Assembly: GCF_055900595.2 (NCBI RefSeq)
Contig: NZ_CM148325.1
Direction: 5' to 3' (one strand)
Length of the DNA stretch: 64,000 nt
Shown here: piece by piece, positions 27,312 to 27,880 of the stretch
Layout: each line of letters begins with the position of its first letter
Numbering within the stretch: position 1 is the stretch's first letter
Position numbers and translations under genes: made by a program
Notes under the pieces: model-generated
What the model was told of the DNA's origin: nothing
Seen by the model: the letters and a program-made list of their open reading frames with translations, nothing else
Databases searched by the model: none

Positions 27312-27880
27312 CTTTATCAATGACTTATCTCCCGACTTCCCGCCTTGCTTTTCCTAAACAGAACAATCGTAGAATATTCTTGAAGGGTTAGATCGTCACT
27401 GTTTTCTGTTCGATACTGTGACATTCAGCACTTGATTCGCTATGGATCTGACAGGAAGCTTTCGAGCGAAAATGTGCAGTTATTCAGTCGTTTTCTTATC
27501 GCTCACCATTATTCTTTTAGACATTCATCCTATGAAACTGCCGCAAAGTTGGTGGTGGGAACTGAAGTTGCGTAGAGAAGGGGTCAATATTTGAGCCAAA
27601 AAAGGAACGCGGCCGTCAGATTAAAGCCGCGGGACAAAGTCCATAATTTCCAAGAGTTGTTGAATTTCCCAGCTTTTTTGAAAGCCTTTGTATCATACTA
27701 ACAAGTAAAAAAGGTTTAAATACCAAAATTAACCTGTATTTTTGATAAGTCTTACCATTGTACGATTTACACAGTTTCTGCTCCTCCTTGTTGATAGTGG
27801 AAAGGGTGCATTGTGCACTTGCGTAAACATTTATGACGCGTTGATGTCCATGGTTCACATTTCCTTGTCAGGGGATCGTC

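Follow-up and report, generated by a model that had tools for sequence, protein, structure and literature searches.

Small RNAs encoded beside the lysis genes of prophages are a kind of RNA already known. For instance, AsxR and AgvB (RF02703 and RF02702), 51-60 nucleotides (nt) in length, are carried by lambda-like prophages of enterohaemorrhagic Escherichia coli (EHEC) downstream of Q and PR' and upstream of the lysis genes, a prophage position from which Hfq-bound small RNAs were reported by Tree et al. 2014 (PMC4104026). The Pas small RNAs (sRNAs) of enteropathogenic E. coli (EPEC) prophages, including PasA and PasC by the holin gene and PasD/STnc100, likewise possess an intrinsic terminator and a poly-U tail and lie beside the holin/lysozyme operon (PMC8550237; bioRxiv 10.64898/2026.05.13.724894), and the Pas genes were reported to be absent from K-12 and restricted to pathogenic lineages (PMC8550237). 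Additionally, convergent transcription units that overlap and share a terminator have been described (Conway 2014; Huang et al. 2020, PMC7373196), and reviews place the pathogenicity island PAI-serU (TcpC) and Shiga toxin (Stx) phages at the tRNA gene serU. All of these bear on the locus treated here, the 569 bases that separate serU from yodB (positions 27312-27880) in a 64-kb window of an E. coli chromosome of a non-K-12 strain, the window being the whole stretch of DNA analysed. The interval, which is 100% identical to that of strain E308, holds a compact minus-strand unit at 27598-27720 that has the parts of a small RNA gene.

The phage copies of this unit occupy the same site as AsxR and AgvB, are antisense to late transcription and converge with an STnc100-like element, and the architecture is shared as well, with a 5' part that varies, one small hairpin, the terminator hairpin and a U-tail. 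In contrast to AsxR, which carries CGAUUAUUAAAACGAGUAUCUCAUGCAAUUGCCCGAACCCACUCGGGCUUUUU, the candidate RNA reads ...AUGGACUUUGUCCCGCGGCUUUAAUCUGACGGCCGCG...; it is about 83-92 nt long with an extra 5' hairpin, and its E. coli copy belongs to the core genome, convergent with a serU read-through RNA, whereas AsxR and AgvB reside in prophages. The RF02702 and RF02703 models gave no match at E <= 10 in window positions 27000-28600 and none at E <= 1 in the phage loci that bear homologues, and the genuine AsxR of Sakai prophage Sp5 scored 88 bits. Against Rfam 15 the tRNA alone in the interval region rose above chance, and AgvB, AsxR, Esr41 and STnc100 were unmatched. The Pas sRNAs resemble the unit in their variable sequence and copy number, and identity with PasA-D was rejected, the published E2348/69 probe and seed sequences being absent from the unit. 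Literature searches for serU/yodB with sRNA terms and for the RNA's own sequence returned no named gene, and the core sequence occurs in no searchable paper. Judged by these comparisons, the RNA appears to be of a known kind that matches none of the named families (AgvB, AsxR, PasA-D). Its double hairpin and poly-U tail, preceded by a U-rich stretch in phage copies, fit the module of Ishikawa et al. 2012. The convergent units of Conway 2014 and Huang et al. 2020 include the same 61-nt overlap and p19-captured double-stranded RNA; there the locus is listed as tRNA read-through, and no gene, promoter or family is given for the minus-strand RNA.

It is judged probable that two convergent transcription units share the interval as their 3' region, with an independent small RNA gene embedded in it, and, taken by itself, an independent RNA of about 90 nt is moderately likely. 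Confidence is high for the terminator, the convergent overlap and an antisense promoter near serU, and low for any particular function of the candidate RNA. The original prediction, drawn from the sequence alone, had proposed that the interval could be the scar of a past integration or could hold promoter or small RNA elements for yodB. It is partly supported overall, and the small RNA elements are the part borne out, by the candidate gene at 27598-27720 and by a published antisense start site at 27364. The parts of the unit are as follows.

27692-27720, minus strand: candidate RNA promoter, with -35 TTTAAA at 27720-27715, a 17-nt spacer and -10 TATGAT at 27697-27692 (promoter scan)
27598-27689, minus strand: candidate small RNA of about 90 nt with a predicted 5' end (covariance model, fold, Term-seq 3' end)
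27686-27671, minus strand: 5' hairpin GGCUUU-CAAA-AAAGCU (fold)
27670-27643, minus strand: single-stranded linker GGGAAAUUCAACAACUCUUGGAAAUUAU of about 28 nt (fold)
27642-27632, minus strand: hairpin GGAC-UUU-GUCC (fold)
27631-27625 and 27614-27608, minus strand: terminator stem CGCGGCU / GGCCGCG with a 10-nt loop (fold)
27607-27598, minus strand: U-tract, tail UUCCUUUUUU

The 7-bp G+C-rich stem and the U-tract directly after it constitute an intrinsic terminator, which a simple terminator scan missed because the loop is 10 nt.

Published K-12 data place the 3' end of a minus-strand RNA exactly at this terminator. U00096.2 positions y convert to window positions x by x = 27311 + (2041492 - y), and U00096.3 numbers are 1,976 higher. 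The Term-seq data of Adams et al. 2021 contain an orphan 3' end at U00096.3 2043181(+), the last U of ...GGCCGCGUUCCUUUUUU, from cells grown in lysogeny broth (LB) to an optical density (OD) of 2.0. This base is window 27598 and coincides with the end of the covariance-model match in K-12 (locus L004, 4089-4181). Conway et al. also mapped a terminator at window 27598, as the end of an operon on the U00096 + strand, and from the other side their serU unit extends from a promoter at 2041633 to a terminator at 2041144 (U00096.2), which is window 27170 to 27659 (both PMC7373196 Table S1). Both strands are transcribed across the hairpin.

27312-27659, plus strand: serU 3' trailer and read-through RNA (Conway et al. 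unit, p19 double-stranded RNA, trailer reads)
27598-27659, both strands: 61-nt convergent overlap of the serU read-through RNA and the minus-strand RNA (Conway 2041144-2041205)

Double-stranded RNA captured with p19 by Huang et al. 2020 covers 2041159-2041583 (window 27220-27644), one of the top 15 clusters, and a 22-nt duplex, UCUGACGGCCGCGUUCCUUUUU / AAAGGAACGCGGCCGUCAGAUU, is listed at 2041180-2041204 over the terminator and U-tract; the serU trailer strand gave 22,895 reads at 2041448-2041470 (PMC7373196). As the two RNAs share the 61-nt zone, the hairpin serves transcripts from both directions.

The unit is also highly conserved. Compared with one phylogroup B2 strain (L002), the interval is a mosaic of four blocks, followed by a segment that belongs to the yodB allele.

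27312-27400: block A, 0 differences in 89 nt from B2
27401-27595: block B, 9 differences in 195 nt; a fast-evolving spacer in which no constraint is detectable
27596-27716: block C, 0 differences in 121 nt
27717-27758: block D, 6 differences in 42 nt
27759-27880, minus strand: yodB 3' flank, the left end of the 995-nt allele 27759-28753 that carries yodB (alignments, BLAST)

Block C, with 0 differences in 121 nt, is set against flanks with 15 in 237 (Fisher p = 0.003), which are 5-14% divergent from B2. Among 5,426 complete E. coli genomes, the block C unit was found in 5,417, including K-12, at a median of one place per genome, and 5,365 of those 5,417 carry it at 99% identity or more; block B reaches at least 99% identity in only 1,539 of 5,423 records and falls below 95% in 325. 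Such constraint bears on the reading that takes the block for what is left, without function, of an ancient lambda-like prophage at serU, a decayed scar. Neutral DNA should diverge as the flanks do, and a block at least 99% identical in 99% of genomes has not done so.

Relatives of the unit are found on mobile elements only, namely in lambda-like prophages and on a single plasmid. BLAST showed collinear homology over the 156 nt at 27599-27754, and none outside them, to phages vB_EcoS-683R6 and SerU-LTIIb and to an IncF plasmid of Salmonella. Scanning viral contigs with the exact pattern TGGACNTTGTCCCGCGG recovered 91 stretches, which represent 44 family variants. TTTAAA, a spacer of exactly 17 nt and a TAnnnT -10 box (TAGTAT, TAATAT, TATGAT or TATACT) stand at a fixed distance from the RNA body in 41 of the 44. 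The 5' hairpin is always present with varying sequence (GUCCCC/GGGGGC, GUCUCC/GGAGAC, GUCUCUCU/AGAGAGAC, and GGCUUU/AAAGCU in E. coli), and RNAalifold reported changes on both sides in 6 of 16 pairs, located in the 5' hairpin and the two outermost terminator pairs, the latter turning from CG to UA in 5 sequences and from UA to CG in 5. A covariance model (R1) built from 16 representatives gave one significant match in the window, 27599-27691 on the minus strand (70.6 bits, E = 8e-15), the second being at chance level (14.3 bits, E = 0.95). R1 also matched the K-12, B2 and O157 loci, and found nothing in the serU loci of other genera or in the Sakai AsxR region.

In phages the unit is situated in the stretch from Q, which has tRNA genes with it, to the holin gene; it is oriented antisense to the late genes, and a weak STnc100-like match converges on it. 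Only 297 of the 5,426 E. coli genomes carry the phage form at full length, as do two deposited phage records. The copy on Salmonella plasmid pCFSAN001015 (L088, 1440-1560) is accompanied by a second tandem module about 45 nt downstream, consisting of GGAC-AUU-GUCC, a hairpin and a U-run.

Several points weigh against an independent, functional RNA. With 2,241 reads, the 3' end seen by Term-seq is modest, and it appears in one of three growth conditions. SMRT-Cappable-seq has no unit at the locus and the Cappable-seq tables examined have no entry, so the candidate RNA could represent no more than the end of a transcript that reads through from yodB. No entry for the region occurs among the listed rows of the EPEC data from RNA interaction by ligation and sequencing (RIL-seq), and no CLIP record turned up among the rows examined. 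The E. coli copy folds with an ordinary energy (z = -0.67), and the covariation has two limits: the GGAC/GUCC hairpin and five bases of the terminator were constants of the search pattern, so that these pairs could not vary, and the effective sequence number is only about 2. The type strain of E. albertii has lost the RNA part, and the unit is dispensable there. Lastly, the linker motif CAACAAC is complementary to GUUGUUG of GcvB with a duplex energy of -13.3 kcal/mol, and this predicted pairing does not support a role as GcvB sponge in the manner of AgvB, as shuffled linkers averaged -16.2 kcal/mol and 88% were at least as good.

The main rival, in which the conserved block is a bidirectional terminator only, with unused promoter-like boxes and no separate RNA, would accord with the finding of no start site in the data sets examined and with the low expression in one condition. 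It would also accommodate the positions of the minus-strand 3' end (27598) and of the end of the serU unit (27659), which bracket the hairpin, and yodB has no strong intrinsic terminator before the block. A terminator, however, needs about 35 nt, yet 121 nt are at least 99% conserved, including the promoter boxes and a 5' hairpin that covaries across the family; the promoter geometry is retained in nearly all family variants, and it is the entire unit, beyond the hairpin, that moves between phage, plasmid and chromosome. Furthermore, strains without yodB keep the RNA unit unchanged, although zinT there has its own terminator 190 nt upstream. Termination as the sole role is accordingly held to be unlikely, with the embedded small RNA gene the preferred reading.

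On that preferred reading, transcription of serU extends about 350 nt beyond the tRNA on the plus strand, to roughly 27659, and the promoter at 27720-27692 would drive a minus-strand RNA of about 90 nt, from about 27689 to 27598. A second minus-strand promoter, with its start at 27364, fires an RNA antisense through serU towards mtfA, and the terminator hairpin would in addition halt yodB read-through. The RNA is predicted to bind Hfq, and its linker most likely pairs with RNAs from other loci, with the overlapping serU trailer, or with both; Hfq-type action is proposed because other prophage small RNAs have a double hairpin and a poly-U tail. The unit itself would be a chromosomal copy of a self-contained lambda-like prophage unit (between Q and holin), fixed before E. 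coli diversified and strongly constrained since. A more specific proposal is put forward tentatively, as falling a little short of an even prospect: a core-genome sRNA gene taken from a prophage, near-frozen and overlooked by curated K-12 annotation, expressed in stationary phase, whose linker, unlike that of every phage copy, would let the RNA act as a regulator or sponge of the Hfq type, and the founding chromosomal member of a family outside Rfam.

Two observations concern the linker. In the K-12 lineage a G-to-C change is located at window 27669 (GCUGGGAAA -> GCUGCGAAA), whereas B2, O157 and E308-type strains are identical to one another at this position. An imperfect 18-nt tandem repeat, AATTTCCAAGAGTTGTTG / AATTTCCCAGCTTTTTTG, spans the linker and half of the 5' hairpin at 27645-27680.

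K-12 is the bacterium most thoroughly searched for small RNAs. If the preferred reading is true, the regulatory network would gain a node in the form of an unannotated RNA gene that is nearly invariant and present in about 99.8% of E. coli genomes, and the unit would be a clean case of a self-contained phage transcription unit turned core gene, with phage copies still in circulation and E. albertii as a natural knock-out. That tRNA read-through, a small RNA and an antisense promoter share one terminator also bears on the processing of tRNA 3' trailers. For genome scanning, the lesson is that a gap beside a tRNA gene may be neither empty nor a scar.

The history of the unit is recorded in part by E. 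albertii, whose type strain lacks 109 nt of it between two short repeats.

27714-27707 (promoter spacer) and 27605-27598 (U-tract), minus strand: 8-nt direct repeats CCTTTTTT, bracketing the 109 nt absent from E. albertii

The same strain keeps 27713-27758, which is also shared with the phage homologues. The difference is therefore a deletion in E. albertii, and since the upstream part was kept, the complete unit predates the split between E. coli and E. albertii. The loss in the type strain occurred by recombination between the short repeats. That the block might be a small mobile repeat, as the flanking 8-nt repeats could suggest, was rejected, the block being single-copy and the repeats marking the E. 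albertii deletion. The unit probably came from a phage, and it is here that the reading as a functionless prophage remnant finds most of its support: relatives occur only in lambda-like phages and on a plasmid, copies are found in phages that use serU for integration, about 29% of genomes have this site occupied, E. albertii has deleted the RNA part and the region is AT-rich. This origin would make the unit a scar in a looser sense. Nevertheless, the interval holds no repeat of the attachment site (att) and no integrase fragment, the phage homology ends at the unit edges, and an RNA 3' end is made in vivo at the terminator. A remnant without any function is considered improbable, only the claim of no function being contradicted.

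Taken in the sense of att repeats, no integration scar is present in the interval. The original prediction started from the premise that tRNA 3' ends are common integration sites, which is correct for this gene.

27222-27311, plus strand: serU, tRNA-Ser(CGA) (ARAGORN; Rfam tRNA 57 bits), its 3' end an attachment site in other strains and unoccupied here

The junction between serU and the interval is intact in 3,855 of the 5,426 genomes; therefore about 29% carry an insert at exactly this point, and serU is an integration hot spot that stands unoccupied in this window. In O157 strain 141, the tccP/espJ prophage ends in a 61-nt partial serU copy that abuts 27312 exactly, and phage SerU-LTIIb has a like arrangement, annotated as a pseudo-tRNA; partial serU copies in occupied genomes measure 61-62 nt. 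These elements, together with PAI-serU with its TcpC, use the same tRNA and the same junction base, 27311/27312, and in contrast to such occupied sites the present window lacks an insert, an att repeat and any integrase fragment.

The direct repeat of the serU 3' end that a scar should have left was looked for across the 64 kb and is absent: a 25-mer (<=3 mismatches) and a 14-mer (<=2 mismatches) from the 3' end each occur once, in the tRNA itself, and a local repeat search found none. Of the 5,426 genomes, 5,421 contain the interval wholly or in part, and the count for 27312-27758 is the same. The strain-variable presence expected of a scar is not seen, since only 27759-27880 varies, along with yodB. 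The scar suggestion thus failed for want of a serU 3'-end copy and an integrase remnant in a near-universal interval; uniform conservation without a tRNA repeat, which the original prediction had named as the opposite outcome, holds for 27312-27758 and not for 27759-27880, whose presence follows that of yodB. BLAST of the interval against phages and plasmids matched only the 156-nt RNA unit. In other Enterobacteriaceae, at loci reached via mtfA, the DNA after serU is unrelated and often opens with integrase-sized ORFs; orthologous intervals in other genera were accordingly rejected, that DNA being unrelated outside E. coli and E. albertii.

Two other arrangements at the serU flank were recorded. 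In Escherichia sp. E1V33, E. whittamii and SCPM-O-B-8794, which is labelled 'E. coli', the serU 3' end abuts shiA-amn instead of zinT/yodB (positions 1-4900); therefore the serU-to-yeeL segment is inverted, with one breakpoint right at the serU attachment flank. In Escherichia sp. MOD1-EC7003 (431-2314), a gene pair of a type I cyclic-oligonucleotide-based antiphage signalling system (CBASS) lies directly 3' of serU, with an oligonucleotide cyclase (E = 9e-170) and a two-transmembrane (2TM) effector (E = 9e-83).

The part of the interval that does vary belongs to the yodB allele. Past 27758 the window and B2 alleles are unrelated up to the zinT stop codon, and hence the right-hand 122 nt of the interval are part of that allele. 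B2 strains and E. albertii have 222 unrelated nt in place of the 995-nt yodB allele, and the zinT terminator arms (AGACACG / CGTGTCT) are the sole sequence common to both alleles. The full length of the interval is matched by 3,064 genomes, and roughly 2,300 match 27312-27758 only. The allele without yodB looks ancestral. In a paper on sequence type 410 (ST410), presence or absence of yodB was used as a clone marker.

The stretch of about 570 bp had been described as AT-rich and without a credible open reading frame (ORF), and this was confirmed, as all ORFs are <=80 codons and the G+C content is 0.41. Three of them deserve mention.

27616-27858, minus strand: 80-codon ORF noted in the original prediction; spurious; overlaps the RNA unit
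27442-27594, plus strand: 50-codon ORF in block B; non-coding
27591-27701, plus strand: 36-codon ORF

The 80-codon ORF had been called unconvincing, rightly so: it crosses the allele boundary at 27758, and a coding role was rejected on this ground. Its B2 counterpart is a different ORF of 109 codons that runs through the zinT terminator. None of the nine interval ORFs matched Pfam or NCBIfam at E <= 10, integrase fragments included. The 50-codon ORF was rejected as coding because 9 of 9 differences from the B2 allele alter an amino acid. That the conservation of the unit is due to a small protein, from the 36-codon, the 80-codon or a 7-codon ORF (AUGGACUUUGUCCCGCGGCUUUAA) inside the candidate RNA, is very improbable. 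Such ORFs do exist, and the 7-codon one, MDFVPR(L/S/R), recurs in most family members. However, neither of the two shorter frames is conserved across the family: stop codons truncate the 36-codon frame in the phage copies, and the 7-codon frame has CUG instead of AUG in the Salmonella plasmid copy and no Shine-Dalgarno sequence in the phage copies. The paired changes preserve stems, not codons.

The bases next to serU have a promoter of their own on the minus strand.

27364-27399, minus strand: antisense promoter, with presumed hexamers -35 GTGACG at 27399-27394 and -10 TATTCT at 27376-27371, and start G at 27364

The start, 2041439(+), was found by Dornenburg 2010 (sequenced 21 times) and by Thomason 2015, as tabulated in PMC7373196 Table S1, and the double-stranded RNA MS-314 of Lybecker lies at 2041437-2041586 (PMC7373196). 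The RNA from 27364 runs antisense through serU towards mtfA and pairs with the abundant serU trailer. Block A is conserved because the boxes of this promoter, GTGACG and TATTCT, lie there and are kept in E. albertii. A Term-seq 3' end is located 70 nt inside mtfA (U00096.3 2043721, +; window about 27058), about 306 nt downstream of the 27364 start. The transcript between them may act as a distal leader of mtfA, or it may be a separate RNA that is antisense to serU.

In this neighbourhood the genes follow one another as the yersiniabactin island at asnT, mtfA (-), serU (+), the interval, yodB (-) and zinT (-). Because serU and yodB are transcribed towards each other, both have their 3' ends at the interval, and yodB, a minus-strand ORF, faces it with its stop codon at 27881; the yodB promoter that had been suggested for the interval is therefore impossible. 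The G+C content ranges over 0.37-0.43 in a 200-base profile, and yodB and zinT are equally AT-rich. In other Enterobacteriaceae the gap after serU spans 66 to 2,301 bases, so its length alone is unexceptional. The K-12 counterpart (NC_000913.3 2042899-2043467) has no annotation, and neither does the interval in any RefSeq E. coli record among the matches listed.

The yersiniabactin high-pathogenicity island occupies window 241-25774 and includes giant ORFs at 1338-10829 and 10917-17042. An integrase-like ORF (24731-25774) adjoins tRNA-Asn (26155-26230), and asnT is occupied, next to an empty serU, because the island sits there.

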